DNA of 64,000 nucleotides from Patescibacteria group bacterium (GTDB lineage: Bacteria; Patescibacteriota; Patescibacteriia; Patescibacteriales; UBA12075): positions 284,565-348,564 of the forward strand of contig JAHILH010000001.1 of NCBI GenBank assembly GCA_018897195.1, written 5' to 3'. The notes below the pieces were generated by a model, which saw nothing but the letters and a program-made list of their open reading frames with translations, was not told where the DNA came from and did no database searches. Every line of letters starts with the position of its first letter. The stretch's first letter is position 1. Positions 3,051 through 59,202 of the stretch are shown piece by piece. The position numbers and the translations under genes were made by a program.

Positions 3051-3082
3051 CAAAAACGCTCCTCAACAGAGAAGCGTTTTTA
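3051..3082. terminator. Bidirectional intrinsic terminator
   Basis: AAAAACGCT-CCTCAACAGAGA-AGCGTTTTT. Downstream of gene 3103..5538. Confidence 0.6.
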
Positions 3083-3102
3083 AATTTTATATCTTTTATT
3101 TT

Positions 3103-5538
3103 CTACAATCCCTTAAATTGCACACTCACGGCATCCTTTGTTGCCTGATCTTGCAAAACATTATTAACTAAATAGTCAGCCATTATTTTTGCCTTATCAT
3201 TCTCGCCGATCTTTTGATAAAGAACAGCTAGGCTGTAGCGAGCATTGGCATGATTTGGGTTACCACCCTGAGTTGGGTCCAGCAGGATACTTAAGAATAA
3301 TTGTTCAGCAGTGTTTAGGTCGGCATTTCTTTCGATTTTTCCGCCTGCTTGTCCGGCTTGCACGCTTAGGTTTTGCCCATTTGCATCAAGAGCGTTTTGT
3401 TGCACCTTTGGATCAACAACGCCGCGATTAAAATAAAGGCGACCTAATTCAAATCTATAATCCAGATTGTCGCGCGCGATCAGATTAGCATTTTTTAATT
3501 GCTCAATCGCGTCGTCGATTTTATTTAATTTTTCACTCGCAATCGCCTTGCCATAATATGCTGCGGCCAAATCACCCTTTTTGGCAATTGCTTCATCGTA
3601 CTTCTTTATCGCTTCTTCGATATAAAATTTCTTTTCCTCGTCAGCAGTTTCAATATTTGACTTAGCCATATTAACTAAAGCCATTCTAAGATATGAGGTT
3701 GGATTTTGTGGATCAAGCGCGCTTACCTTTTTATATAATTCTGCCGCTGCATCCAAGGCGCCCCGTGTGTAGAAAGAAGCATTTTCATAAATCAAGGCCA
3801 GGGATTCATTATTTGCTGCTTTGTTAGGTGCATACTGTATAGCCTTTTTGCCCTGCTCAATCGCCGTATTTAAGCTGCTCGCCACTTCTGCCTGATCGTT
3901 ACTACCCATAGCAGCTTTGTTGGCGATAGCCATATAATTGTTTGCAGAATTTATATAATATACATCTTGATAACCAGCCAAGGAAATCGCTTTATTTAAT
4001 TTTTCATTCTTCTGAGCTAAATCATCAATCATTGATGACTCCTTGGCATAAACATCAGCCATATACATTTTCATACCCATCGTGAACAAAATTACCACTC
4101 CAGAACTAACAACCAGGAAGACAGCCGCCAAAGCCAAGGCATACTTTGCTTCGGCTCGAAAAGAAAGACCAACAATTTTGAATTTTTCTGGATACATTTC
4201 AATGCCAGACGCAACCGCCAAAATTGAAATTAAGACTGAAAGAATAATTATGGAATTATTTTGCGGAAACAAAAGTGCAAAAAGCACAATTGAAATAAAA
4301 CTCGCAAACAAACCGACAATAACGGTATTCGCTTCATTGTCTTTACCCTTAATCAATGTCAAAAATAAAATAGAAAGAGAGATTAGCAATAAGACAATAA
4401 CCATAACTGCACCTGGCACGCCAACAGTAGCTATCAATTCAAACAAGGCGCCGGTTGAACTATCAAAACGCACATTCCAAAGCGGTGACATGTTAAAATT
4501 AACATTTTTAAACTTAGAAAAACTATAATCAAATGTAGAAAGACCAGATCCGAAAATCGGATTTTCACGTACAGCTGATTTGGCAATGTCCCAAGAAGCA
4601 CCACGAGAAAGACTAACCTCAGCTGGTAAATTCAAATTCTTAATTTGAAAATTTCCCATTACCAAGAAAATAATCAGCACTAAAAAAGTTAGCAATGGGA
4701 TTATTAAATTATTAGTTGAAATCTTGATAATCTTTGCCATAAAAAACATCAACAACACAACCAAGCCAACAACGGGAATCGGCCAGAAGGTAAAACCGTT
4801 CAAGATGGCCAAAACTGTCAATGATGAAATTATTGAAATACCAGAAATGGTTTTTATTGCTACTAAAAGGGCTTTTGATGCATTCGGTAATAACTCTTTT
4901 GCTTGTGCTGCAACCACTACAAACAAGGGCAAAATCATCACCAAATACATTGTCAAACCAGATAAAGAGCCGATAGGATTAACACCTTGATTATGTGTAA
5001 AACCCATAGGCAAGAGATATTTTCCGTTTATTTGTAATAAGGAATAGATGCTCAATAAAAAACCAGAGGTCACAATAGCGCCAAAAAATAATTTAATATT
5101 TTTTAAATTAATATTATTTACCACTAAATAAAAAAACAAAGCATACACGATAATAGCAATAAGGCCCTTTGACGAATTTCCGTAAGAACCAATCAAACTA
5201 TCCTTAGCGCTAATTGAAAAAATAGTAGAAGCACTAAACAAAACCAAAGTTATTAAAATTGGAATGTCCAGGGGTGTTTTTTTAAAAGATAGTTCACCGG
5301 CAACTACGCCCTTTGTCACCCAAGCCACAACTCCAACCAAAACTAAAAAATAAAACAAGACAATCTTGTCAAAGCCAAAGCCCTGAGCGGTTAGATTGGT
5401 AAAAAATAACGGGATCATGAAAAAAACTAAGGCAATTGAACCCTTGATTATAAGATCTAGGATCATGGTTGCGCCGAATTTATTAACTGATTCCACCCCC
5501 CCCAAAGACGATTTTGAATTGATTTTGGCTTCATTCAT
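3103..5538 (-). CDS. O-antigen ligase/polymerase-like polytopic membrane protein with C-terminal TPR repeats
   Basis: 811 aa. The N-terminal ~480 aa are multi-TM with a Wzy_C-like loop (SRGASWDIAKSAVRENPIFGSGLSTF). The C-terminal ~300 aa show TPR-like repeats (AAAYYGKAIASEKLNKIDDAIEQLKNA, ARYSLAVLYQKIGENDKAKIMADYL). Confidence 0.6.
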   Translation of the reverse strand: MNEAKINSKSSLGGVESVNKFGATMILDLIIKGSIALVFFMIPLFFTNLTAQGFGFDKIVLFYFLVLVGVVAWVTKGVVAGELSFKKTPLDIPILITLVLFSASTIFSISAKDSLIGSYGNSSKGLIAIIVYALFFYLVVNNINLKNIKLFFGAIVTSGFLLSIYSLLQINGKYLLPMGFTHNQGVNPIGSLSGLTMYLVMILPLFVVVAAQAKELLPNASKALLVAIKTISGISIISSLTVLAILNGFTFWPIPVVGLVVLLMFFMAKIIKISTNNLIIPLLTFLVLIIFLVMGNFQIKNLNLPAEVSLSRGASWDIAKSAVRENPIFGSGLSTFDYSFSKFKNVNFNMSPLWNVRFDSSTGALFELIATVGVPGAVMVIVLLLISLSILFLTLIKGKDNEANTVIVGLFASFISIVLFALLFPQNNSIIILSVLISILAVASGIEMYPEKFKIVGLSFRAEAKYALALAAVFLVVSSGVVILFTMGMKMYMADVYAKESSMIDDLAQKNEKLNKAISLAGYQDVYYINSANNYMAIANKAAMGSNDQAEVASSLNTAIEQGKKAIQYAPNKAANNESLALIYENASFYTRGALDAAAELYKKVSALDPQNPTSYLRMALVNMAKSNIETADEEKKFYIEEAIKKYDEAIAKKGDLAAAYYGKAIASEKLNKIDDAIEQLKNANLIARDNLDYRFELGRLYFNRGVVDPKVQQNALDANGQNLSVQAGQAGGKIERNADLNTAEQLFLSILLDPTQGGNPNHANARYSLAVLYQKIGENDKAKIMADYLVNNVLQDQATKDAVSVQFKGL

Positions 5539-5621
5539 AAATTTTCTAATATTAACCCCGAGGGATTTTAAATAATTAATATATGTGTATATCTAATTAG
5601 ATTATATCTAAAAAATTAAAT

Positions 5622-6740
5622 TTAATCAATTTCACCTTGACTATTCTGACTTATAAAAATATTTATCTTGTCCTTAAATATTTGTTCTGAAAAGCTTTCA
5701 GCGTGTTTTTTAATTTCACTTGAATTGAACTCATGTTTATCAAAGACATTAATCGCCTCCACCAAGCTCTCTACTGACTGATTATCAAAAAATAATCCCG
5801 TTTTTCCACTTATCACCGTTTCGGTAGCTCCCCCTTTTTTATAAGCAATAACTGGTCGCCCTGATGCCATCGCTTCGACAACGGTAATTCCAAAATCCTC
5901 TTCTTGTGGATTAATAAAAGCTAGGCAATTACTATACAGTTCAGCTTTTTCATCCTCGCTAACTCGACCAAGAAATTCAATATTATCAGCGCCATTGGCA
6001 ATACTCTTCAATCGTTCAATATCCACGCCACTACCAAATATTTTTAGTTTCTTGTCTTTTAATTTTTTGAAAGCCTCAACTACGATATCAACCCGCTTAT
6101 AAGCCGCTAAACGCCCGCCAATTAAGAAATAATCTTTGGATTCATTTGAAATTTTAAAACGACTCAATTCAACCGGTGGATAAATAATTTCAGAATCACG
6201 GCGATAATATTTACTGATACGTTTTTGCACTGTTTGAGAATTCGCAATAAATAAATCAACTCGCTGTGCGGCCACAAAATCCCAAATCCGTAATTTATTC
6301 AACACCAAGGATATAACTTTCTTGAAATATTTATTGTAAGAAAGTTCATTAATATATTGATGGGTATAATCCCAGAGATATCTCGTCGGCGTGTGACAAT
6401 AACAAATGTGCAAAGTATCCGGCTTGGTTATCACTCCCTTGGCAAACGCTGAGGCATCGGAAATGACAATATCAAAATCGCTCAGGTCAAAAAACTCAAC
6501 GGCAATCGGCATGTATTTCAAATACCATTGATAATGTTTTACACCACCTGGTAATTTTTGAATAATAGAGGTTTTTATTTCTCGCCCTTTAAAATATTTA
6601 TTTACATGCTTTTCTTCATACAATAAAGTATAAATCGGCGCCTCCGGAAACATATCCGCCAACACCTTTAAAACTTTTTCCGCTCCCCCGTCCTGGGCTA
6701 GATGGTCATGAACTAAGGCAATTTTTTTGTTTGTAATCAT
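5622..6740 (-). CDS. Glycosyltransferase family 4
   Basis: Start moved to ATG 6740 (MITNKKIALVHDHLAQDGGAEKV...). The track's 35-codon extension to 6845 translates the repeat elements (IPAFAGMT). EX7E region present: EEDFGITVVEAMASGRPVIAYKKGGATETV. Confidence 0.8.
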   Translation of the reverse strand: MITNKKIALVHDHLAQDGGAEKVLKVLADMFPEAPIYTLLYEEKHVNKYFKGREIKTSIIQKLPGGVKHYQWYLKYMPIAVEFFDLSDFDIVISDASAFAKGVITKPDTLHICYCHTPTRYLWDYTHQYINELSYNKYFKKVISLVLNKLRIWDFVAAQRVDLFIANSQTVQKRISKYYRRDSEIIYPPVELSRFKISNESKDYFLIGGRLAAYKRVDIVVEAFKKLKDKKLKIFGSGVDIERLKSIANGADNIEFLGRVSEDEKAELYSNCLAFINPQEEDFGITVVEAMASGRPVIAYKKGGATETVISGKTGLFFDNQSVESLVEAINVFDKHEFNSSEIKKHAESFSEQIFKDKINIFISQNSQGEID

Positions 6741-6750
6741 ATCTTCTTTC

Positions 6751-6780
6751 GTCATCCCCGCGAAGGCGGGGATCCAGGTA
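6751..6780. repeat. Solo terminal hairpin of the same element family
   Basis: GTCATCCCCGCGAAGGCGGGGATCCAGGTA, matching the right-end type in reverse orientation. No partner end lies within 200 bp. Confidence 0.7.
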
Positions 6781-6816
6781 TTATTTAGATTATTCGTTAT
6801 AATTCTCATCCCAATA

Positions 6817-6913
6817 CCCCTCACCCCGACCCTCTCTCCTCCCAAGGCGGACAGGCCGCCGGGGCGAGGGAGTTTGTATTCCCTCTCCTTTGTAGGAGAG
6901 GGTTAGGGTGAGG
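6817..6913. repeat. GC-rich palindromic repeat, family 2 (CCCTCACCCC / CCCTCTCC units)
   Basis: CCCCTCACCCCGACCCTCTCTCC...GGGGCGAGGGAG..CCCTCTCCTTTGTAGGAGAGGGTTAGGGTGAGG. The outer CCTCACCC/GGGTGAGG and inner CCCTCTCC/GGAGAGGG segments are self-complementary. Confidence 0.75.
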
Positions 6914-6921
6914 CAGAAAAG

Positions 6922-8337
6922 CTACTCTGTCTTTCGACCCTTTAATATCGCAATTGGCGTTCTCAAGAATATTGCTAAATCCAAAAGCAAGGACCAGTTT
7001 TCAATATAATAAGTATCCAATTTCACTTCTTCCTCAAAAGTTAAATCACTGCGACCAGAAATCTGTGCCATACCAGTCATACCAGGTTTAATCGTCAAAA
7101 CTTTTTTGTGATGATGTTCATACTTCGCCACTTCTTCCGGCAAATGCGGACGCGGACCAACCAAGCTCATGTCGCCCTTTAATACTAAAAATAATTCCGG
7201 CAACTCGTCTATGCTCCAACGACGAATAAAGCGACCGACGCGAGTGACACGCGGATCATCCTTAATTTTAACCATTGGCCCTTCAGATCGAATATTTTTA
7301 CTAGCCAACTCCGTATAGCGCAGACTATCCGTCTTCGGTGTCATGGATCGAAACTTAAGATAGTTAAATAATTTACCACCCTGCCCTACACGACACAAAG
7401 GACTGTCGTCATCTTTCTTATAAAAGAACACCGGCCCACTCGAATCAATCTTTACCAATAAAGCGGTTACGATTAAAATCGGTGATACTAAAATAATTAT
7501 AAAAATCGAACCAACAACGTCAAAAGTTCTTTTCGCAATTCTGCCCCAACCCTCCAATGGAGTTTTGATAACTTCTACAATCGGCACACCGGCAATTTCC
7601 ATCACATCGGTTTTTAGCACTTTGGCATCCAATAAATCAGCCGCATAACGAAACGTAATATGATTTTCATCAGCAAAATCAAACATACGCAAAGTCTCCG
7701 CCTTGGATAAGTTCGGATCACATTGAATAATCTCATCAATTTGTCTGAGTTTAATAAATTCTTGCAATTCCTGTGAAGTCTCAATGCTAAAATCTTTCAA
7801 ACGCTTCACCACATTAATACCTAAGGATTTTCGCGTTGCAAACTCCTGCACCAAAACATCAGCCGTCTTGCTAAAACCAACCAAAACAATATCATGTAAA
7901 CCGATACCATAGTTAAACAAACCCTTTTGCAACTCACGCATCAAGATGCGATAAAAAGTAATATATAAAATTGAAATAATCCAACCGGCTAAAACAATAA
8001 AACGAGAATCAAAAAGTTCTCGTCGTAAAAAAATCATAATCACAATCAGCATCAAACCCGTGGAACACGCCAAGGTAATCTTATAGAATTCCCTAATCAC
8101 CTTCTTGGTGCTTTTGATATTATAAAGTCCGGCAAAAGCAAAGATAATAATCCAAGCAACGGCAATCAACATCAACACTTTCAAATAATCGGCAAAATTC
8201 AAATTAAAAACGACCGGTCTGATTCCTATTGTAAATTCTGAAAATCTAATCTGATATGCGGTAATACCCGCCAAGATAATCATTATAAAATCCAAAGGCA
8301 CCAAAAGAAACGAGAAAACTAATTCTGATTTTTTCAT
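6922..8337 (-). CDS. Polyprenyl-phosphate glycosyl-1-phosphate transferase (bacterial sugar transferase, WbaP-like)
   Basis: C-terminal sugar-transferase domain: KRTFDVVGSIFIIILVSPILIVTALLVKIDSSGPVFF...LKFRSM...DELPELFLVLKGDMSLVGPRP. Start moved to ATG 8337 (MKKSELVFSF...). The extension to 8400 translates a repeat end (SRLRGNDG). Confidence 0.85.
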   Translation of the reverse strand: MKKSELVFSFLLVPLDFIMIILAGITAYQIRFSEFTIGIRPVVFNLNFADYLKVLMLIAVAWIIIFAFAGLYNIKSTKKVIREFYKITLACSTGLMLIVIMIFLRRELFDSRFIVLAGWIISILYITFYRILMRELQKGLFNYGIGLHDIVLVGFSKTADVLVQEFATRKSLGINVVKRLKDFSIETSQELQEFIKLRQIDEIIQCDPNLSKAETLRMFDFADENHITFRYAADLLDAKVLKTDVMEIAGVPIVEVIKTPLEGWGRIAKRTFDVVGSIFIIILVSPILIVTALLVKIDSSGPVFFYKKDDDSPLCRVGQGGKLFNYLKFRSMTPKTDSLRYTELASKNIRSEGPMVKIKDDPRVTRVGRFIRRWSIDELPELFLVLKGDMSLVGPRPHLPEEVAKYEHHHKKVLTIKPGMTGMAQISGRSDLTFEEEVKLDTYYIENWSLLLDLAIFLRTPIAILKGRKTE

Positions 8338-8364
8338 ATATAATAAGACTAACACCAATTCCCC

Positions 8365-8532
8365 GTCATTCCCGCGAAGGCGGGAATCCAGGCGCCACAA
8401 TGAGCGGGCGCACGATTATAGAGACTAGTCTTGATAAAATATTGGTTATAAAAATACTTTGTTTAATTTTAATTTTCCTTATATTGAAATCATTGTACGA
8501 GGTACCTGGATCCCCGTCTTCACGGGGATGAC
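8365..8532 (+). mobile_element. REPIN/MITE-like element, copy A (168 bp)
   Basis: GTCATTCCCGCGAAGGCGGGAATCCAGGCGCCACA...CGAGGTACCTGGATCCCCGTCTTCACGGGGATGAC. Terminal inverted repeats, no ORF. Lies between the rnpB 3' end and the sugar-transferase start. Confidence 0.8.
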
Positions 8533-8547
8533 AGTTGTATTCCAATA

Positions 8548-8884
8548 ATCTTAAGGCAAGCGATAAGCCGGATTCTGTCGTGGGCAACTATTTATCTAAG
8601 CCTTGATATTGCTATCAAGATCAAGCGGCACTTCCTGGCTTGCGCCAAGACACGGCCTTGCTCCTTGCAGGGTTTACCACGTCACTCTGTCACCAGAGGA
8701 CGAATCGAGTGGTCTCGAAACTTTTCACCTTTCATCCCGATTGCTCGGGACTAGTATTGTCTCTGTGGCACTTTCCCTAGAATTACTCCTGGTGGACGTT
8801 ATCCACTGCAATGTTCGCTCTTGCGAGCGGGAGTCCGGACTTTCCTCCCCGGCCAAAACCGGAGCAACTGCCTACTTACCTTAA
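8548..8884 (-). ncRNA. rnpB: RNase P RNA (bacterial type A-like)
   Basis: The reverse strand contains GGGGAGGAAAGUCCGGACUCCC (5' strand of P4/CR-I), AGUGCCACAGAGA, GGUAAACCCUGCAAGGAGCAAGG and ACAGAAUCCGGCUUAUCG (CR-V). The 5' UAAGGUAAG can pair with the 3' CUUGCCUUA as P1. Ends are approximate to about +/-10 nt. Confidence 0.9.
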
Positions 8885-9291: not shown

Positions 9292-9570
9292 TTAATTAAT
9301 ACACACATGTTCTTTCAGTTGAATATCTTTAGCTGGTTTATATGACAGCCAGGTATAAACAAGACTCACGATGAACGAGAACAACATAATCGCCAGTCCA
9401 AAAATTTCAAACACTTGCGTATTTCTGCCAAAAACCATTATGCCACGGGGATACAAAGAATTATATCCAAGGAATAAAGGAATACACGCAAAACAAGTTG
9501 AAAAAAATACCGCTGAATAATAACGACTCAGAACCCACAAACGTTTTAAAATTTCCTTAAACGTTGCCAT
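9292..9570 (-). CDS. Small two-TM membrane protein (92 aa), unknown function
   Basis: Start moved to ATG 9570 (MATFKEILKRL...), preceded by AAGGAGA. It has its own TTGACA-17-TATATT promoter upstream, and two hydrophobic helices. Confidence 0.55.
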   Translation of the reverse strand: MATFKEILKRLWVLSRYYSAVFFSTCFACIPLFLGYNSLYPRGIMVFGRNTQVFEIFGLAIMLFSFIVSLVYTWLSYKPAKDIQLKEHVCIN

Positions 9571-9640
9571 GGCGCATTCTCCTTTATAGTAGAGTTTATC
9601 TGATATAATCAAAAATATATTTATCAATGAACGAATAACC

Positions 9641-11409: not shown

Positions 11410-11577
11410 GTCATTCCCATGAAAATGGGAATCCATGCGCCACAGATTTTGGATATTTAATTATAGAGACTAGTCTTGATAAAACATTAATAACAAATAG
11501 TACGTCGTAAATTTTAATCCTCCTTATACTGAAACCAATCTACGAGGTACCTGGATCCCCGCCTTCGCGAGGATGAC
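11410..11577 (+). mobile_element. REPIN/MITE-like element, copy B (168 bp)
   Basis: GTCATTCCCATGAAAATGGGAATCCATGCGCCACA...CTACGAGGTACCTGGATCCCCGCCTTCGCGAGGATGAC. Begins 6 nt after the nusG stop. Confidence 0.8.
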
Positions 11578-12939: not shown

Positions 12940-12963
12940 AAATATATATATTATTCATTATTT

Positions 12964-13010
12964 ATTCGCAATTCGCAGATTAATACTAATTAGCAGATTA
13001 GCGTTACAAT
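12964..13010 (+). promoter_or_regulatory. Conserved ATTNGCA heptad array (copy 1), ends 3 nt before the dCMP deaminase ATG
   Basis: ATTCGCAATTCGCAGATTAATACTAATTAGCAGATTAGCGTTACAAT. About 40 of 46 positions are identical to 16457-16503. Confidence 0.6.
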
Positions 13011-15751: not shown

Positions 15752-15802
15752 TTAAACCCACGACGTCTCGAATCCTCGGGACAATGGTGGGCGAAGTAAA
15801 AC

Positions 15803-16410: not shown

Positions 16411-16445
16411 GAGGAGTGCTTTAAACAAGGCACTTCTTTTATTCT
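16411..16445 (+). terminator. Hairpin plus T-run between kinase paralog 2 and tmk-dut
   Basis: GAGTGC-TTTAAACAAG-GCACTT followed by CTTTTATT. A short stem, so moderate confidence. Confidence 0.45.
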
Positions 16446-16456
16446 ATTTTCAATAT

Positions 16457-16503
16457 ATTCGCAATTCGCGGATTAGCATTTATTAGCAGATTAGCATTAT
16501 ACA
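16457..16503 (+). promoter_or_regulatory. Conserved ATTNGCA heptad array (copy 2), ends 5 nt before the tmk-dut ATG
   Basis: ATTCGCAATTCGCGGATTAGCATTTATTAGCAGATTAGCATTATAC. Confidence 0.6.
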
Positions 16504-19829: not shown

Positions 19830-19866
19830 AATTTAGGGATCATGCGCAATAGAATGGGTCTTGGTT

Positions 19867-20014
19867 CCCTCTCCTTTGCAGGAGAGTGTTAACGTAATCC
19901 TCGTCCGACCAATAATAAAGGGGGCAGGGTGAGGTAGAACGAGCGAAGAATATCAGATGTGTTATCTCAAATAATACCCCCTCACCCCAGCCCTCTCCCG
20001 GCGGGGCGAGGGAG
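19867..20014. repeat. GC-rich repeat, family 2 (two units flanking a ~60-bp spacer)
   Basis: CCCTCTCCTTTGCAGGAGAG...GGGCAGGGTGAGG ... CCCCCTCACCCCAGCCCTCTCCCGGCGGGGCGAGGGAG. The same units as at 6817-6913, in swapped order. Confidence 0.75.
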
Positions 20015-21575: not shown

Positions 21576-22961
21576 ATGACAAAACAAGACGACATCGAAA
21601 AAATCCCGCCTCAAAACATCGACGCGGAAATGTCCTTTATTAGCTCATTGCTAATAGACAAGGACGCCATGCTTAAAGTTTCTGACTCTATTTCTGATGA
21701 TGATTTTTACAAAGACGCCCATCGCATTATTTATACAGCCATGCTTGATCTTTACAACAAGCACGAGCCGATTGATATCGTCAGCGTTACCAACAAGCTT
21801 AAGGGCAAAAAACAACTCGACTCCATTGGTGGTCGCACTTACCTTGCCCACCTAACAAGCTTTGCCGCAACTCCGGCCAATATTCCCCACTACGCAGAAA
21901 TCATCCAAAAGAAAGCGACATTACGTCGTCTACTCAAAAGCGCCAACGAAATTAGCGCCATGGGCTACAACGAAGACGCTGACCTTGATGATATGCTTGA
22001 CCAGGCCGAAAGAAAACTTTTTGGCGTTTCGCAGAAATATTTAAAGAATGCTTTTGTTGGTGTTGACACCTTGCTTAATGATGCCTTTGACAGAATTGAC
22101 GAACTCCACAAACAAGGTGGCAAGCTCAGAGGTATCACCACTGGCTATCCAGACCTAGACAAACTCTTAACCGGTTTACAAAAATCCGATTTAATTATTC
22201 TCGCCGCTCGTCCATCTGTTGGTAAAACCACTATCGCTATGGATATCGCCCGTCAGGCGGCCATCGTTGGCAAAGCTGCTGTTGGCGTTTTCTCACTCGA
22301 AATGAGCAAAGAACAATTAGTTGACCGTATGCTTTGCGCTGAATCGAAGGTTAGCTTGTGGCGCATGCGCTCTGGCAACCTTTCCGACAAAGAAGGTGAC
22401 AATGATTTTGCCAAAATCAATGAAGGCATGGGTCGCCTGTCCGAAGCGAAAATATTTATTGACGACACTCCTAATTGCGGTATCATGGAAATTCGCAGTA
22501 AAGCCCGCCGCCTACAAATGGAAAAGGGATTAGATTTGATGATTATCGACTATTTACAATTAATGGAGGGTCGCGGTAAGAACTCCGACAATCGCGTTCA
22601 AGAAATTGCTGAAATATCCAGAGGTCTCAAAGGCATCGCCCGTGAACTTAATATTCCCGTTATTGCCCTGTCACAACTCTCTCGTGCCGTAGAAGCGACC
22701 AAACCAGCGATTCCTAAATTATCACACCTTAGAGATTCAGGATCGATTGAGCAAGACGCTGATATCGTTTTATTCATCTACCGTAAAGCCGCTGACAGAA
22801 ATTTCAGTATTGAAGAATTAACCCCAGAAGAACGCCACAAAGGCGAAATATTTATTGCCAAACACAGAAACGGCCCAACTGGAAAAGTTGACTTATTCTT
22901 TGATGAGGAATCAGTTAGTTATCGCAATATGGAGACAATCAGTCGTGATGGTATGTACTAA
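21576..22961 (+). CDS. dnaB: Replicative DNA helicase DnaB
   Basis: PPQNIDAEMSFISSLL, Walker A ARPSVGKTT, IIDYLQLM, LSQLSRAVE, HRNGPTG. Confidence 0.95.
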   Translation: MTKQDDIEKIPPQNIDAEMSFISSLLIDKDAMLKVSDSISDDDFYKDAHRIIYTAMLDLYNKHEPIDIVSVTNKLKGKKQLDSIGGRTYLAHLTSFAATPANIPHYAEIIQKKATLRRLLKSANEISAMGYNEDADLDDMLDQAERKLFGVSQKYLKNAFVGVDTLLNDAFDRIDELHKQGGKLRGITTGYPDLDKLLTGLQKSDLIILAARPSVGKTTIAMDIARQAAIVGKAAVGVFSLEMSKEQLVDRMLCAESKVSLWRMRSGNLSDKEGDNDFAKINEGMGRLSEAKIFIDDTPNCGIMEIRSKARRLQMEKGLDLMIIDYLQLMEGRGKNSDNRVQEIAEISRGLKGIARELNIPVIALSQLSRAVEATKPAIPKLSHLRDSGSIEQDADIVLFIYRKAADRNFSIEELTPEERHKGEIFIAKHRNGPTGKVDLFFDEESVSYRNMETISRDGMY

Positions 22962-22969
22962 TTCCATGC

Positions 22970-23131
22970 GTCATTCCCGCGAAGGCGGGAATCCAGGCGC
23001 CACAATGAAAATATTTTAAATTATAGAAACCTAATCTAATAAAGATTGTATACAAAATATTATTTTAATTAATCTACTATATCTAGAACCATTATTCGAG
23101 GTACCTGGATTCCCGCCTTCGCGGGAATGAC
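22970..23131 (+). mobile_element. REPIN/MITE-like element, copy C (162 bp, most diverged interior)
   Basis: GTCATTCCCGCGAAGGCGGGAATCCAGGCGCCACA...TTCGAGGTACCTGGATTCCCGCCTTCGCGGGAATGAC. Begins 8 nt after the dnaB stop. Confidence 0.8.
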
Positions 23132-23153
23132 GACTCGATGGATATTCAAACTT

Positions 23154-23429
23154 ATGTTCAACAAATTAAAACAAATCAAAGACTTACGTGACCAAGCCAA
23201 AGTAATGCAAAGCGCCTTGTCCGGAGAATCTATTACCGTAGATCGCAAAGGATTAACACTTGTTATGAATGGCAATATGGAAATCACCTCTGTAAAAATC
23301 AATGAAGAAATTACCAAAGAGAAATTAGAAGAAATTATCAAAGACAATACAAATAATGCTATCAAGCAAATTCAAAAAGTAATGGCCAAGAAGATGCAAG
23401 AAATGGGCGGCTTCCCTGGTTTGTCATAA
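23154..23429 (+). CDS. ybaB: Nucleoid-associated protein YbaB/EbfC
   Basis: Start moved to ATG 23154 (MFNKLKQIKDLRDQAKVMQ...). The earlier part of the track ORF lies inside the repeat element. Classic position upstream of recR. Confidence 0.8.
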   Translation: MFNKLKQIKDLRDQAKVMQSALSGESITVDRKGLTLVMNGNMEITSVKINEEITKEKLEEIIKDNTNNAIKQIQKVMAKKMQEMGGFPGLS

Positions 23430-33194: not shown

Positions 33195-34793
33195 TTACAT
33201 CAAACTCATACCCGTCATTTCTTTCGGCTTCTTCAGGCCCAAGACTTTTAAGATAGTTGGCGCAATATCAGACAAGATTCCCTGTGGCTGAATAAGACTC
33301 AGGTCACTGCCGGCCACATTCTTCCAGCCAAAGCTTTTGCCGCGATATTCATTACCTACAACGATAAAAGGCACTGGGTTGGAGGTATGTTCCTTGTCTA
33401 TTTGACCGGTTTGCATATTAAACATCACCTCAGCATTGCCATGATCAGCTGTTATCATCAAGACGCCGTTTTTACTTAATATAGCCTTGGCAACTCGAGC
33501 CACGCATTTATCCAAAAACTCCACACCCTTAATCGCCGCCGCGATATTGCCGGTATGACCGACCATGTCAGCATTGGCATAATTAACGATTATCATGTTA
33601 TGTTTATCGCTTTCAATTTCGCTAAGTAATTTTTCGGTTATTTCCGCTGCTGACATTTCTGGTTTCGCATCATAACTGGAAACCTGCGGTGAAGGAACTA
33701 GGGCATGCTCTTCACCGGGCGCCTTTGTTTCTCGACCTCCATTAAAAAAATATGTTACGTGGGCATATTTTTCTGTTTCCGCAATCCGTAACTGTGTTAA
33801 CCCGCCGTCTGCCACAACATCGCCAAGAGTATTCTTAATTTCATCGGATTCAAAAACTACACTCACGGGCAATCCTTTTTCGTATTCCGTAAAGCAAGCA
33901 AAATATAAATTATCAATCTTTTTTTCACGATTAAATTTTTCCACTTTTTCGTCTACAAACGCCTTTGTTATTTGTCGAGCGCGGTCTGGACGAAAATTAT
34001 AAAAAACAATTGCATCATTATCATTGATTAAAGCGACTGGCTTTCCATCCTTCTCAATAACCGTGGGTATAAATTCTTCATCATATACCTTATTATTATA
34101 GCTTTTTTCAATGGCCGAAATAGCACTTTCTGCCTTATTTCCAACTCCAGCCGTCATCGTCACGTAGGCTTTTTCTATTCTATCCCAATTATTATTTCTA
34201 TCCATGGTGTAAAATCGTCCCGCAATCGAAGCAATCGCGCCTACGCCATACTCGGCAATACTTCTTTCGACACCTTTGATAAAATTCATACCACTGTTAT
34301 AAGAAGTGTCTCGTCCATCTAATATGGCGTGTACGTAGGCCTTTTCAATTCCCTGCTCCTTGGCTAAAACTAAAAGAGCGTGCAAATGGTCAATCGAACC
34401 ATGCACACAACCGTTAGAAACAACGCCCATAAAATGCAATTTGGAATTATTTTTTTTGACATGCTCAATAGCCTCGAGTAGCACCTTATTTTGATAAAAA
34501 GTATTGTCGCTAATTTCCTTATTAATTCTAGGAAGATCTTGATAAAGAATTTTTCCCAAGCCAATATTAACATGTCCGACTTCACTATTACCAGGCTCAC
34601 CCCATGGCAAACCAACTGCTTCACCGCTTGCGCGTAAAGTCATTGACGGATATTCAGAAATCAAACTATTAATAAACGGAGTGTTTGACTGAGTTATTGC
34701 ATTGCCAGTATAAGGTTGTCCAATGCCCCATCCATCAAGAATTACCAAAACAACTGGCTTTGGTATTTTTATTTCAATATTTTCTTTCATCAT
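33195..34793 (-). CDS. gpmI: 2,3-bisphosphoglycerate-independent phosphoglycerate mutase (copy 1)
   Basis: LVILDGWG, GNSEVGHVNIG, LDGRDT, ADMVGHTGN, TADHGNAE, EHTSNPVPF. All metal and phosphoserine motifs are intact. Confidence 0.9.
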   Translation of the reverse strand: MMKENIEIKIPKPVVLVILDGWGIGQPYTGNAITQSNTPFINSLISEYPSMTLRASGEAVGLPWGEPGNSEVGHVNIGLGKILYQDLPRINKEISDNTFYQNKVLLEAIEHVKKNNSKLHFMGVVSNGCVHGSIDHLHALLVLAKEQGIEKAYVHAILDGRDTSYNSGMNFIKGVERSIAEYGVGAIASIAGRFYTMDRNNNWDRIEKAYVTMTAGVGNKAESAISAIEKSYNNKVYDEEFIPTVIEKDGKPVALINDNDAIVFYNFRPDRARQITKAFVDEKVEKFNREKKIDNLYFACFTEYEKGLPVSVVFESDEIKNTLGDVVADGGLTQLRIAETEKYAHVTYFFNGGRETKAPGEEHALVPSPQVSSYDAKPEMSAAEITEKLLSEIESDKHNMIIVNYANADMVGHTGNIAAAIKGVEFLDKCVARVAKAILSKNGVLMITADHGNAEVMFNMQTGQIDKEHTSNPVPFIVVGNEYRGKSFGWKNVAGSDLSLIQPQGILSDIAPTILKVLGLKKPKEMTGMSLM

Positions 34794-34819
34794 ATAATAA
34801 AATTAATTATTAGTTTTAT

Positions 34820-36394
34820 TTAAATAAGGCTTTTCCCGCTCATTTCTTTTGATTTTTCTATATCCAATAATTTTAATATTGTCGGCGCAATATCGCACAG
34901 GCTACCGTTTTTTCTTAATGTAATATTTTTATTATTATTTTTATTAATCAAAATAAATGGAACTTTATTAGTCGTATGCTCAGTATAAACCTCTTCTGTT
35001 TCCAAGTTTATCATTTCTTCAATGTTGCCATGATCAGCGGTAACGAGCACCGTTCCATTAATATTGAGGTAGGCCTCAACAATTCTCCCCAAACAGACAT
35101 CTACGCTTTCACAACATTTTATGCCCGCCGTAATATTGCCAGTATGTCCAATCATGTCGGGCGCCGCAAAATTTACAAAGGTGAAATCGTATTTTGCTTT
35201 ATTGTTTTTTATGTTTTCTAACACTACGTTTGTTAATTCCGACGAACTCATGCTTGGAGTTTCATCATATGATTTGACATCCGGAGACGGAACCATTACT
35301 TGATCTTCACCAGCGACTGTCCCGGAATAACCACCATTAAAAAAATAGGTTACATGGGCATATTTTTCTGTTTCTGCCAAATAGAGTTGCTTAAAATTCG
35401 CAAGTGCCATTGGCAAAGTGTTTGTAATATCAATACCAGGATAAGCCGTCAAAACTTCACTCAAGTCTGGTCCAAAATCAGTCATAGCAACAAAATAAAG
35501 ATGTTCTAGTTTTTTACCACGCAAAAAAGCGCCAGGATTCTTGACATCAAAACCATGCTGCATAAAAGCCTTAGTTAATTGCCGACTACGATCTGACCGT
35601 AAATTAAAAAAGATAACACTATCCCCATCTTCTATTCGAGTATTTGTTTTTTCATCATTGGTGATGATGCATGGCTCAATATACTCATCACTCTCGCCAC
35701 GATTATAAGCCTCAGTAATAGCACCAATGGCCGTTGATGCCATTTTTCCTTTGTTAATCGTCAGGGTGTTAAAAGTTTTTTCCGTTCTTGACCATTTCTT
35801 TTTACGATCCATGGCATAAAATCTACCAACGATTGTGGCAATTTTAAAATTACCCAAATGATTTTTTTCCAGATCTTGAATCAATTTCAATGAAGCATAT
35901 TTAGGGGAATCTCGTCCGTCGGTATATAGATGCAAATATGCATCTTTAACGTTGTTATTTTTCAACATCTCAATCAAGGCAATAAGGTGTCCTGGGTCGC
36001 TGTGAGGACTTTGACCATTTGATAACATTCCCATTAAATGTATTTTTGAATTCATTTTACGAGCATGTCTGATCGCACCTAAAAAAGCCGAATTTTTTAC
36101 AAACGTGCCATTATCAATGGATTTGCTAATTATTACCGACTCTTGTTCCACTAATCGGCCAGCGCCAATATTCATGTGCCCTGCCTCACTATTACCAACT
36201 TGACCGTCGGGCAAGCCAACATACTTTCCATGGGCATAAAGAGTTGTATTGGGATATTTTTTTATCAATGAATTAAATACCGGTGTCTTCGACAAAGAAA
36301 TAGCATTACCACGATTTGGATCACCAATTCCCCAGCCATCCAAAACTATCAATATCATTGGTGACGTTGTTTCATTTTCGACTTTTTTAATCAT
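34820..36394 (-). CDS. gpmI: 2,3-bisphosphoglycerate-independent phosphoglycerate mutase (copy 2, diverged tandem paralog)
   Basis: LIVLDGWG, GNSEAGHMNIG, TDGRDS, PDMIGHTGN, TADHGNIE, EHTTNKVPF. The motifs are intact but the sequence is clearly diverged from copy 1. Confidence 0.85.
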   Translation of the reverse strand: MIKKVENETTSPMILIVLDGWGIGDPNRGNAISLSKTPVFNSLIKKYPNTTLYAHGKYVGLPDGQVGNSEAGHMNIGAGRLVEQESVIISKSIDNGTFVKNSAFLGAIRHARKMNSKIHLMGMLSNGQSPHSDPGHLIALIEMLKNNNVKDAYLHLYTDGRDSPKYASLKLIQDLEKNHLGNFKIATIVGRFYAMDRKKKWSRTEKTFNTLTINKGKMASTAIGAITEAYNRGESDEYIEPCIITNDEKTNTRIEDGDSVIFFNLRSDRSRQLTKAFMQHGFDVKNPGAFLRGKKLEHLYFVAMTDFGPDLSEVLTAYPGIDITNTLPMALANFKQLYLAETEKYAHVTYFFNGGYSGTVAGEDQVMVPSPDVKSYDETPSMSSSELTNVVLENIKNNKAKYDFTFVNFAAPDMIGHTGNITAGIKCCESVDVCLGRIVEAYLNINGTVLVTADHGNIEEMINLETEEVYTEHTTNKVPFILINKNNNKNITLRKNGSLCDIAPTILKLLDIEKSKEMSGKSLI

Positions 36395-37735: not shown

Positions 37736-38905
37736 CTAACTCACTAACCCTTCTAAACCGGGCATTTTTTCGCCACCCAGATAGCTCAACATTGCGCCGC
37801 CACCGGTCGAAATCCAATCAATGCCATATTCCATTTTTAGCGCACGTAAAGCTTCAACGGTTTCACCGCCGCCAACCACGCCAAAGGTTGGACCCTTGGA
37901 CCGCGCAGCCACATATTGGGCTAGGGCCATCGTACCGGTTTTAAAAATCTTGATTTCAAAAAAACCCATCGGACCGTTCCAGATTATCGTTTTAGCCTTC
38001 TTGATTTCATGGGCATATAATTTAATTGTTTCTGGTCCGATATCAAAAATATAATCCCTATCTGTTATTTCATTTAATTTTCTAATTTTAATATCTCCAC
38101 CCGTTTTACTTGCACTCACCACAACATCTACCGGCAAAAGAATATTTTTTCGATCCAATTTTTTGGCAAAATCCAAATACTCCTTATCAATCATGGACTT
38201 GCCCACATTAAAACCATCAACTTTAAAAAAATTATTTGCCAAGGCACCACCAATCATTACGCGGTGCGCTTTTTTTTGTAAATTTTTTATCAATTTAATT
38301 TTCGTCTTAATTTTAGCACCGCCAATCAAGACTACTAGTGGGTCAACAGGGTGCAAAGCTTTATTCAAACTTAAAACCTCTTGCTCCAAGAGTAAACCAG
38401 CATACGAGGGGATATATTTCTTGATTGCACTGACACTTGCCTCGGCTCGATGACAGACAGAAAAAGCATCATTAACATAAACCTCAGCTAGTTTAGCTAA
38501 CTTCTTAGCCAGCTTCACATCATTGGTTAATTCCCCTTTTTCGTAACGAATATTTTCTAACATCACAATTTCGCCCGCCTTCATCTTGCCCAAAATTGTT
38601 CCGCCAGCTAAAGAAGCAAAATTATCAATAACCCTTATCTTCTTACCCAAAAGCTGCGTTAACTTTCTTACAATCGGCTTCACGGAGAATTGTTCTTCTC
38701 TTTTGTCAGGATTTGGCTTACCCAAATGCGTTATCAAAATTATTTTACAATCGTGGTTAAGTAAAAAATTAATCGTGTCCAAGGCCTTAAGAATGCGATA
38801 ATCATCAAGCACCTTGCCGCCCTTGATTGGCACATTAAAATCAACTCGCAACAAAACTTTTTTGCCGTGTAAATCTTTATAATGATTAATTGATTTAATT
38901 TTCAT
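37736..38905 (-). CDS. pgk: Phosphoglycerate kinase
   Basis: Start placed at ATG 38905 (MKIKSINHYKDLHGKKVLLRVDFNVP). The track start at 38920 lies inside the repeat end. GGGETV and STGGGA motifs are present. Confidence 0.9.
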   Translation of the reverse strand: MKIKSINHYKDLHGKKVLLRVDFNVPIKGGKVLDDYRILKALDTINFLLNHDCKIILITHLGKPNPDKREEQFSVKPIVRKLTQLLGKKIRVIDNFASLAGGTILGKMKAGEIVMLENIRYEKGELTNDVKLAKKLAKLAEVYVNDAFSVCHRAEASVSAIKKYIPSYAGLLLEQEVLSLNKALHPVDPLVVLIGGAKIKTKIKLIKNLQKKAHRVMIGGALANNFFKVDGFNVGKSMIDKEYLDFAKKLDRKNILLPVDVVVSASKTGGDIKIRKLNEITDRDYIFDIGPETIKLYAHEIKKAKTIIWNGPMGFFEIKIFKTGTMALAQYVAARSKGPTFGVVGGGETVEALRALKMEYGIDWISTGGGAMLSYLGGEKMPGLEGLVS

Positions 38906-38915
38906 ATTTTTTTCC

Positions 38916-39084
38916 GTCATCCCCGCGAAGGCGGGGATCCAGGTACCTCGTAGATTGTTATCAGTATAAGGAGAATTAAAATTTACAAAGTATTATTTAT
39001 TATCAATATTATTATGAAGATGAATCTCTATAATTATGTATCCAAAGTATGTGGCGCCTGGATCCCCGCCTTCGCGGGGATGAC
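38916..39084 (-). mobile_element. REPIN/MITE-like element, copy D (169 bp, inverted relative to A-C)
   Basis: The reverse complement aligns end to end with copy B, including the internal blocks ATTATAGAGA, AATTTTAAT, CTCCTTATACTGA and CTACGAGGTACCTGG. Lies between the mreB stop and the pgk start. Confidence 0.8.
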
Positions 39085-39094
39085 GATTTAGAAA

Positions 39095-40102
39095 CTATTT
39101 AGTTGCTAAAATACTACGTTTGTAACTATCGAGATTTTCTAAAGCAATACCAGTACCTTTGGCCACACAGAGCAACGGATCATCAGCTACATAGGCAGGA
39201 ACACCCGTTGTACGAGAAAGCAATTGATCAATATTGCGCAATTGTGAACTACCACCAGATAACACCATTCCCTTATCCATAATATCAGCCGACAATTCAG
39301 GTGGCGTGTCGTGTAAAACTTTTTTGGCCGCACTAATAATAGCTTCTAGTTCGTGCTGCAGGGCCTCCGTTACATCACTACTGGTAATCGTAATACCACG
39401 TGGCAAGCCTGTCAAAATATCGCGACCACGAATTTCCATTGTTAATTTATCTTCCAAGTATAAAGCTGAGCCAATATTAATCTTAATATCCTCCGCTGTT
39501 CTTTCGCCAATCGCTAAATTATATTTTCGACGCACGTATTCCAAAATCGACGCGTCAAATTTATTTCCACCCACACGAACTGAAGTCGCCGACACGATAC
39601 CACCCAAGGAAATTACCGCCATTTCGGCTGTACCACCACCAATATCCACAATCATATGTCCAGAGGCGGAGCCAATCGGAATATCAGCGCCAATCGCAGC
39701 CGCTACCGGCTCTTTGATAATATAAGCCGCCTTCGCGCCAGCAGCAATAGTCGCATCAATCACAGCACGTCTTTCTGTCGAGGAAATGCCAGCCGGTACG
39801 GCTACCATCACCTCGGGACGAAATAAACGCACGCCACCAACAGCCTTATTAATAAAATAACGTAACATTGCTTCAGTTGTTCGATAATCAGCAATTACAC
39901 CATCTTTCAAAGGCTTAATAGCGATAATCGAATCAGGGGTGCGGCCCAACATGTCCTTAGCCTCATTGCCAACGGCCAAGATTTTTTTGTCCGCCATGGA
40001 CACAGCCACCACGCTTGGCTCGTTAATTACTATTCCTCTTTTTGGTAAATGAACTAAGGTGTAGGTTGTTCCTAGGTCAATTCCAATTCTTTTTATAAAC
40101 AT
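39095..40102 (-). CDS. mreB: Rod-shape-determining protein MreB
   Basis: [44 protein letters not shown]. Confidence 0.95.
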
Positions 40103-54031: not shown

Positions 54032-54066
54032 CCCTCACCCCAGCTCTCTTCTGGCGGGGAGAGGAA
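54032..54066. repeat. GC-rich repeat, family 2 (single unit)
   Basis: CCCTCACCCCAGCTCTCTTCTGGCGGGGAGAGGAAG fills the 39-bp gap between two convergent genes. Confidence 0.65.
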
Positions 54067-54069
54067 GCT

Positions 54070-59158: not shown

Positions 59159-59168
59159 ATTTGATACT

Positions 59169-59202
59169 CCCTCACCCTGGCGGGAGAGGGCTGGGGTGAG
59201 GG
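59169..59202. repeat. GC-rich repeat, family 2 (hairpin form)
   Basis: CCCTCACCCTGGCGGGAGAGGGCTGGGGTGAGGG. The arms CCCTCACCC and GGGTGAGGG pair. Lies 10 nt upstream of the murJ start. Confidence 0.7.

Follow-up and report, generated by a model that had tools for sequence, protein, structure and literature searches.

Dispersed 165-bp repeats of a Candidatus Parcubacteria genome as probable ssnA-less miniature elements of the NTS/SRM-SsnA system

Four similar non-coding sequences of about 165 bp, each closed at both ends by a G+C-rich hairpin, lie scattered between the genes of a 64-kb stretch of Patescibacteria DNA (hereafter, the window), which raises the question of what kind of element they are and how they came to be copied. 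A first-pass annotation had placed them among REPIN- or MITE-like elements and pointed to RAYT (HUH) or DDE transposases as possible partners. Our analysis leads to a different partner: we consider it probable, at roughly 0.62, that the sequences, which belong to a genome of Candidatus Parcubacteria (Patescibacteria), are miniature elements of the NTS/SRM-SsnA system that lack ssnA. They would be cognate with 419-bp NTS-ssnA-NTS units, in which two copies of the Neisseria Transformation Sequence (NTS) enclose the gene of a GIY-YIG nuclease, and probably derive from them. As to the host, NusG and L11 encoded in the window are identical to proteins recorded under Candidatus Parcubacteria / Patescibacteria group bacterium.

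The window contains four full copies of 162-169 bp and one truncated copy, and a profile HMM made from 20 copies of the family matched these five places in the window only. They are as follows.

6751-6800, minus strand: truncated copy, right-end NTS (6751-6778) plus about 20 nt of interior
8365-8532, plus strand: full copy 1, 168 bp, subfamily A
8365-8392, plus strand: left NTS/SRM hairpin terminus of copy 1, exact NTS consensus, fits dRS3 (ATTCCCN8GGGAAT)
8505-8532, minus strand: right NTS terminus of copy 1, compensated stem change CCCCGT/ACGGGG
11410-11577, plus strand: full copy 2, 168 bp, subfamily A
11410-11437, plus strand: left terminus of copy 2, degenerate (GTCATTCCCATGAAAATGGGAATCCATG), six changes, outside the SRM pattern
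11550-11577, minus strand: right NTS terminus of copy 2, matching the consensus with at most 3 mismatches
22970-23131, plus strand: full copy 3, 162 bp, subfamily B, both termini exact NTS consensus
38916-39084, minus strand: full copy 4, 169 bp, subfamily A, inverted

All copies lie in short intergenic spacers, are without an ORF and vary in orientation relative to the neighbouring genes. Copy 1 has a Bac_transf sugar-transferase gene on one side, which faces it with its start, and the RNase P RNA (8548-8883, minus strand) on the other, which faces it with its 3' end; copy 2 begins 6 bp past the nusG stop codon and lies 90 bp ahead of the rplK start; copy 3 occupies the dnaB / ybaB-recR spacer, between the dnaB stop and the start of a ybaB-like gene; copy 4 separates the mreB stop from the pgk start; and the truncated copy sits directly upstream of a glycosyltransferase gene start. 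The dispersed, oriented, non-coding family of four full copies with hairpin-forming terminal inverted repeats was thus found at every place where it had been described. What had been taken for a solo end at 6751-6780 does contain an NTS, but it is part of the truncated, minus-orientation copy.

In an alignment of the four full copies, the ends are invariant and the interior blocks follow one another in fixed order. Three blocks, GCGCCACA, ATTATAGA and CGAGGTACCTGG, are present in all four; AATTTTAAT and CCTTATAYTGA are present in three, being missing from the copy at 22970 because that copy belongs to the second subfamily. The cores measure 106-113 bp and have a G+C content of 22-31%, as compared with 55-71% in the termini and 33-41% in the window, and overall identity among the window copies is 64-83%. 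No other GTCAT...ATGAC inverted pairs were found in the window.

The termini also disturb gene prediction, as had been noticed earlier, and the translations VIPAKAGIQ, WIPAFAGMT and SRLRGND were confirmed. On its outer edge, the right NTS has an ATGAC that acts as a false in-frame ATG start for pgk (38918-38920) and for the ybaB-like gene (23127-23129), and the TTG-started ORFs 5622-6845 and 6922-8400 run through NTS copies, so that four ORFs (5622-6845, 6922-8400, 37736-38920 and 23127-23429) are wrongly lengthened by NTS termini. In CPR gene calls, such termini give rise to false start codons and to these spurious peptides.

Several other features of this DNA were observed in passing. A second family of G+C-rich, nested-hairpin repeats, also intergenic and unrelated in sequence to the NTS, has the form CCCTCACCCC.GCCCTCTCC...GGAGAGGG...GGGGTGAGGG and occurs at window positions 6815-6915, 19865-20014, 54032-54067 and 59160-59202, as well as at 6070-6150 of contig L029 and 1215-1255 of contig L034. 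A 60-nt direct repeat of 78% identity (12947-13006 and 16440-16499; TATTCGCAATTCGC.GATTA...TTAGCAGATTAGC.TTA) lies upstream of a dCMP deaminase gene and of a thymidylate kinase-dUTPase gene, both concerned with nucleotide metabolism, and may be a shared regulatory site. Beside the enolase and pgk genes, a tandem paralogous pair of cofactor-independent phosphoglycerate mutase genes is found at 33195-36394. The spacer between the sugar-transferase gene and the RNase P RNA contains a different GTCAT...ATGAC cassette with hairpin ends in each of three relatives, namely the NTS type in the window (8344-8547), GTCATCCTGGAGTGC... in L029 (7528-7679) and GTCATCCTGAGCAATGCGAAGGATC... in L032 (7049-7136), which suggests a hot spot or cassette replacement.

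The identity of the elements is given chiefly by their ends. Searching for the terminal consensus GTCATYCCCGCGAAGGCGGGRATCCAGG with at most 3 mismatches returned eight sites in the window (6751, 8365, 22970 and 38916 on the plus strand; 8505, 11550, 23104 and 39057 on the minus strand), as compared with 0 expected from 100 dinucleotide shuffles. Read in its own orientation, each terminus consists of CGTCAT, an 8-bp stem (ATTCCCGC/GCGGGAAT) closed by a GAAG loop, and CCAG. The stem had earlier been given as 5-6 bp, and the repeat takes in one further base, since the base before GTCAT is always C (CGTCAT...ATGACG). In 47 distinct NTS copies from the window and related contigs, the GTC that precedes the palindrome and the C that follows it are invariant; hairpin pairing is kept in 99.2% of cells, changes on both sides were seen in three of the eight stem pairs (UA/CG in 31 and 16 copies), and the observed values were reached by no shuffle. 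All terminus variants fold into the same DNA hairpin, the degenerate one at 11410-11437 included, which keeps its 8-bp hairpin (CCCAT/ATGGG) through paired changes. Identity between copies reaches 92-95% in the termini versus about 54% in the cores, and this difference, together with the overall divergence of the window copies, indicates that the copies are old and that their ends are being maintained.

The terminus CGTCATTCCCGCGAAGGCGGGAATCCAG fits the published NTS, CGTCATTCCCGCGMAVGCGGGAATCYRG, which three window termini match exactly. The published Ssn-related motif (SRM) pattern is matched by eight of the nine window termini (0.02 expected). The NTS contains the 20-bp dRS3 repeat ATTCCCN8GGGAAT (PMC11893778), whose strict form is found in four of the nine, namely both termini of the copy at 22970 and one each of those at 8365 and 11410, and termini outside it carry the paired C-G allele ATCCCC...GGGGAT. 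SsnA, a 94-aa GIY-YIG nuclease, binds the NTS hairpin on single-stranded DNA only and in one orientation only, cuts a few nucleotides upstream of the hairpin, and is inactive on RNA (PMC11893778, Nat Commun 2025). The three bases ahead of the palindrome are critical for cleavage and the C behind it for binding, while changed loop identity and loop extensions are tolerated; strand-specific binding and cleavage are known for the Neisseria and Wolbachia proteins only, and Patescibacteria are not named in the main text of that paper (PMC11893778). As judged from their sequence, the window termini are NTS/SRM hairpins in inverted pairs in which the determinants needed by SsnA are intact.

No GIY-YIG gene (ssnA or ssnA remnant), HUH/RAYT gene or DDE transposase gene was found in the 64-kb window, in line with the earlier remark that it holds no transposase. 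A gene bounded by such termini was found on related contigs. L047 carries a 419-bp NTS-ssnA-NTS unit (5366-5784) enclosing a 98-aa GIY-YIG ORF (PF01541, E=5e-18), and the same contig also carries a 167-bp miniature copy (9440-9606). Further NTS-ssnA-NTS units were found on L053, L057 and L138, and every close ssnA homologue (72-95% identity) is bounded by NTS. The units occur in four different contexts: lexA/dinB, metallophosphoesterase/AMMECR1, glycosyl hydrolase family 1/unknown gene, and inside an atp operon. The SsnA of L047 is 95% identical to that of L138, which lies at a different locus (the metallophosphoesterase site), whereas L138 SsnA shows only 86% identity to its positional orthologue in L053; this argues that the ssnA unit has moved between sites or lineages. 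In L053 (1520-1590) and L138 (1597-1660), the left NTS of the ssnA unit has an insertion of about 29 nt in the hairpin loop with the stem kept, which fits the published tolerance of SsnA for loop changes. The source genome of the window presumably encodes ssnA itself.

Homologues of ssnA in Falkowbacteria, Saccharibacteria, Nomurabacteria and CPR2 have inverted GTCAT-hairpin-ATCCAG repeats on both sides, and some of those in named Patescibacteria genomes carry exactly the NTS of the window elements. The exact NTS was also present in 27 contigs of a viral collection (IMG/VR, L002-L028), including a complete, GC-rich NTS-ssnA-NTS unit on L014 (3395-3770), whose SsnA-like protein is 52% identical to the 98-aa protein of L047; a search seeded from this unit returned Sphingomonadales proteins. 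The family-specific right end gave no match in the viral contigs, and a PDB sequence search with the CPR SsnA likewise gave none. The ORF inside an NTS pair on L018 (7310-7605) is small, with a called length of 77 aa, and does not encode a GIY-YIG protein.

Beyond the two termini, miniature and ssnA units have in common a stretch of about 21 nt, which in the ssnA units runs from the stop codon of the gene to the right NTS. This subterminal stretch, AAATCA..T(A/T)CGAGGT(A/G)CC, shows similarity that is significant against shuffles (median z 4-4.7). Inside the left end, similarity between the two kinds of unit was not significant in shuffle-controlled alignment, and the core showed no similarity to the ssnA coding sequence by tblastn or shuffle-controlled alignment; the idea that the core is decayed ssnA was rejected on these grounds. 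An origin by internal deletion thus rests on the termini and about 20 nt at the right end, which make derivation of the miniature elements from an ssnA unit likely.

When metagenome contigs of the JGI were scanned for the right end specific to this family, 17 AT-rich contigs were obtained, on which NTS pairs stand 149-182 bp apart, except for the one pair 419 bp apart on L047. With the window and L034 included, the full miniature copies (149-182 bp) number 20 and fall into two subfamilies; truncated copies occur as well. Related contigs hold at least 20 further copies, and sixteen full ones lie outside the window; a lack of further copies in relatives had been named beforehand as a result that would speak against mobility. 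The earlier statements that the element has no ORF and shows no obvious target-site duplication hold, and no duplication was seen in the flanks of the 20 copies. The pattern GCGCCACA-N80-110-CGAGGTACCTGGAT, which is blind to variants like GCGCCACG, had 0 matches in 185,579 species-representative genomes, and the lineage seems to be absent from that collection.

Relatives differ in which sites are filled. Contigs L029, L032 and L033, syntenic with window positions 1-20 kb at 74-94% DNA identity, contain no NTS in 18-20 kb. The nusG-rplK spacer measures 63 bp without an element in L029 versus 264 bp in the window, the truncated copy (6751-6800) is absent from the orthologous spacer in L029 and L032, and the mreB-pgk spacer of L140 is empty at 34 bp. 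L139 begins inside an NTS (1-18) at a pgk-upstream site matching that of the window, and its Pgk is 90% identical to the window's. The reverse was seen downstream of rplA, where L034 has a family copy, and at the spacer equivalent to window 15752-15802, where L037 has one; both sites are empty in the window. No clean empty site was found among the relatives compared, and exact insertion boundaries cannot be fixed because the relatives (about 76-92% DNA identity) are too diverged in their spacers. These data lend modest but useful support to the view that units bounded by NTS have moved, both those that contain ssnA and those that do not.

A possible mechanism can be outlined from the architecture of the elements. 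Each consists of two inverted NTS hairpins round an AT-rich core of about 110 bp, and because the inverted termini have GTCAT outward, SsnA acting on single-stranded DNA is predicted to make one cut on each strand, immediately beyond the ends of the element. The copies would be recognised by SsnA in trans and may have been copied into short intergenic spacers through SsnA nicking followed by host recombination or replication; alternatively, the hairpin pairs may be kept as cleavage marks on incoming or replicating single-stranded DNA. Because the copies in the genome are old, their current mobility is unproven, and their most likely role at present is that they still serve as SsnA recognition sites that mark single-stranded DNA for cleavage in uptake, replication or repair.

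It is conceivable, though we regard it as unlikely, that the elements are not mobile but static landmarks kept by the host, their hairpin pairs being retained for use by SsnA or another factor, for example, on the model put forward for Neisseria, to restrict or steer the recombination of single-stranded DNA that enters the cell; relatives would then differ through homologous or illegitimate recombination in fast-evolving spacers. Conservation of the termini far beyond that of the cores fits such a role, as do the lack of both target-site duplication and a clean empty site, the absence of known transposase chemistry for SsnA, and the occurrence in three relatives of three different GTCAT...ATGAC cassettes in one spacer. 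However, cores of one family, with their conserved blocks in the same order, are met with in several genomes at loci that are unrelated to one another, for which some copying process is needed, and the ssnA units lie in four different contexts. Retention as landmarks is, moreover, compatible with a miniature element of the NTS/SRM-SsnA system, as it bears on present function and not on origin. Much less probable is a gene for a small structured RNA, which is the annotation given to the Wolbachia element WsnRNA46. Its Rfam model RF02625, of about 151 nt, likewise has inverted GTCAT-hairpin-ATCCAG ends and a short core, and it matches the window below threshold but across the full model at 22954-23151 and 38896-39103 (39-41 bits, E about 1e-7); the whole element also folds as a long hairpin (z = -11). 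The scores are nevertheless below the gathering threshold of 65.3 bits, so that the elements are not members, their hairpin and core sequences differ from those of the model, both strands match equally, and the inverted termini alone drive the match. Promoter and terminator scans gave nothing consistent, no T-tails are present at the NTS hairpins, conservation of the core is poor, orientation to neighbouring genes is variable, and RNA is not a substrate of SsnA. At Rfam gathering thresholds, only the RNase P RNA and two tRNAs pass in the window, and microRNA matches that appeared at a relaxed E-value threshold were set aside as generic long-hairpin artefacts. In view of the ends of its consensus, the Wolbachia 'sRNA' may itself be an SRM-bounded miniature element.

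Two further explanations invoke transposases or recombinases. A REP/REPIN family moved by a RAYT (Y1 HUH) transposase, or a palindrome-associated element derived from IS200/IS605, can hardly be credited, even though the hairpin ends, the intergenic location and the absence of target-site duplication are analogous to REP/BIME sequences, which likewise are short hairpin repeats tied to a single small nuclease-type gene flanked by them and are recognised as hairpins on single-stranded DNA. The gene between identical termini is here a GIY-YIG hydrolase rather than a Y1 HUH transposase, an approximate IS608 TnpA query had no match in 303 kb (window and related DNA), and the 110-bp core is long and non-palindromic, unlike REPIN doublets. 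The RAYT or DDE framing of the first-pass annotation is accordingly not supported, as the termini are the published NTS/SRM containing dRS3 and the gene they bound is that of a 98-aa GIY-YIG SsnA homologue. There is also only a slight chance that the repeats are landing sites for IS110-family recombinases, comparable to dRS3 in Neisseria, which is targeted by an IS110-like recombinase encoded by filamentous phage. The region 2809-4235 of L034 does contain a gene for a transposase of the IS110 family (3054-4235, minus strand; PF01548, PF02371), after which comes an rve-type transposase gene, and the former ends 84 bp from a family copy; but this is a single case with undefined IS boundaries, the window contains no IS110 gene, and the spread of the repeats themselves would be left unexplained.

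The elements are therefore best described as a new instance, in a CPR bacterium, of the recently described NTS/SRM system, and not as a new kind of element. They have in common with the published system (PMC11893778) the NTS sequence, its invariant positions and its hairpin, as well as the NTS-ssnA-NTS unit in related contigs; they differ from it in that the host belongs to the Patescibacteria, the inverted pairs enclose a conserved non-coding core of 110 bp that forms a dispersed family of its own, and the 64 kb examined here are without ssnA. The closest architecture is that of the neisserial NIME (dRS3-RS-dRS3), in which 20-bp inverted ATTCCCN8GGGAAT repeats flank repeat-sequence families of 50-150 bp (PMC1797815). 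NIMEs similarly have G+C-rich ends and G+C-poor cores, are intergenic, and vary in arrays and sites between strains (PMC1797815), and the window element with its core of 106-113 bp corresponds to one isolated dRS3-RS-dRS3 unit. In contrast to the clustered arrays beside variable surface-protein genes in Neisseria, the units described here stand isolated between housekeeping genes, in a host of another phylum, and only some of their termini (4/9) are strict dRS3.

The comparison with MITEs, such as Correia elements, was broadly right with regard to the size of 150-170 bp, the terminal inverted repeats, the non-coding sequence, the intergenic dispersal and the false extension of ORFs. The window family departs from MITEs in lacking target-site duplication, in having termini that are autonomous hairpins, and in having as its partner a nuclease gene and not a known transposase gene, with which it has in common the two termini and, next to the right one, the subterminal 21 nt. 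It had also been suggested that the element would be an ordinary deletion derivative if its termini proved to be the ends of a known autonomous IS. They are indeed the ends of a known gene-carrying unit, so that this description essentially applies, although SsnA is known as a hydrolytic nuclease and not as a transposase or strand-transfer enzyme, and the IS-like nature of NTS-ssnA-NTS is a hypothesis (PMC11893778).

How dRS3/NTS repeats spread has been an open question since the first Neisseria genomes, and these repeats also matter in practice, in that L139 breaks off inside the NTS upstream of pgk, which indicates that NTS repeats break short-read metagenome assemblies. The lineage described here offers a very small test system, composed of a 98-aa nuclease gene enclosed by the motif, a derivative of 165 bp that has identical ends but no gene, and sites that are filled or empty among close relatives, and trans-mobilisation by SsnA is hence directly testable in it. 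We put forward only tentatively, and at less than even odds, that NTS-ssnA-NTS is a true class of mobile element, spreading by means of a 98-aa GIY-YIG single-strand nuclease without a covalent transposase intermediate (e.g., by nicking and then copying), with the 165-bp elements as its first recognised non-autonomous derivatives. If this were true, the family would provide the first comparative evidence, in a minimal CPR genome, of the multiplication of repeats of the dRS3/NTS/NIME type.
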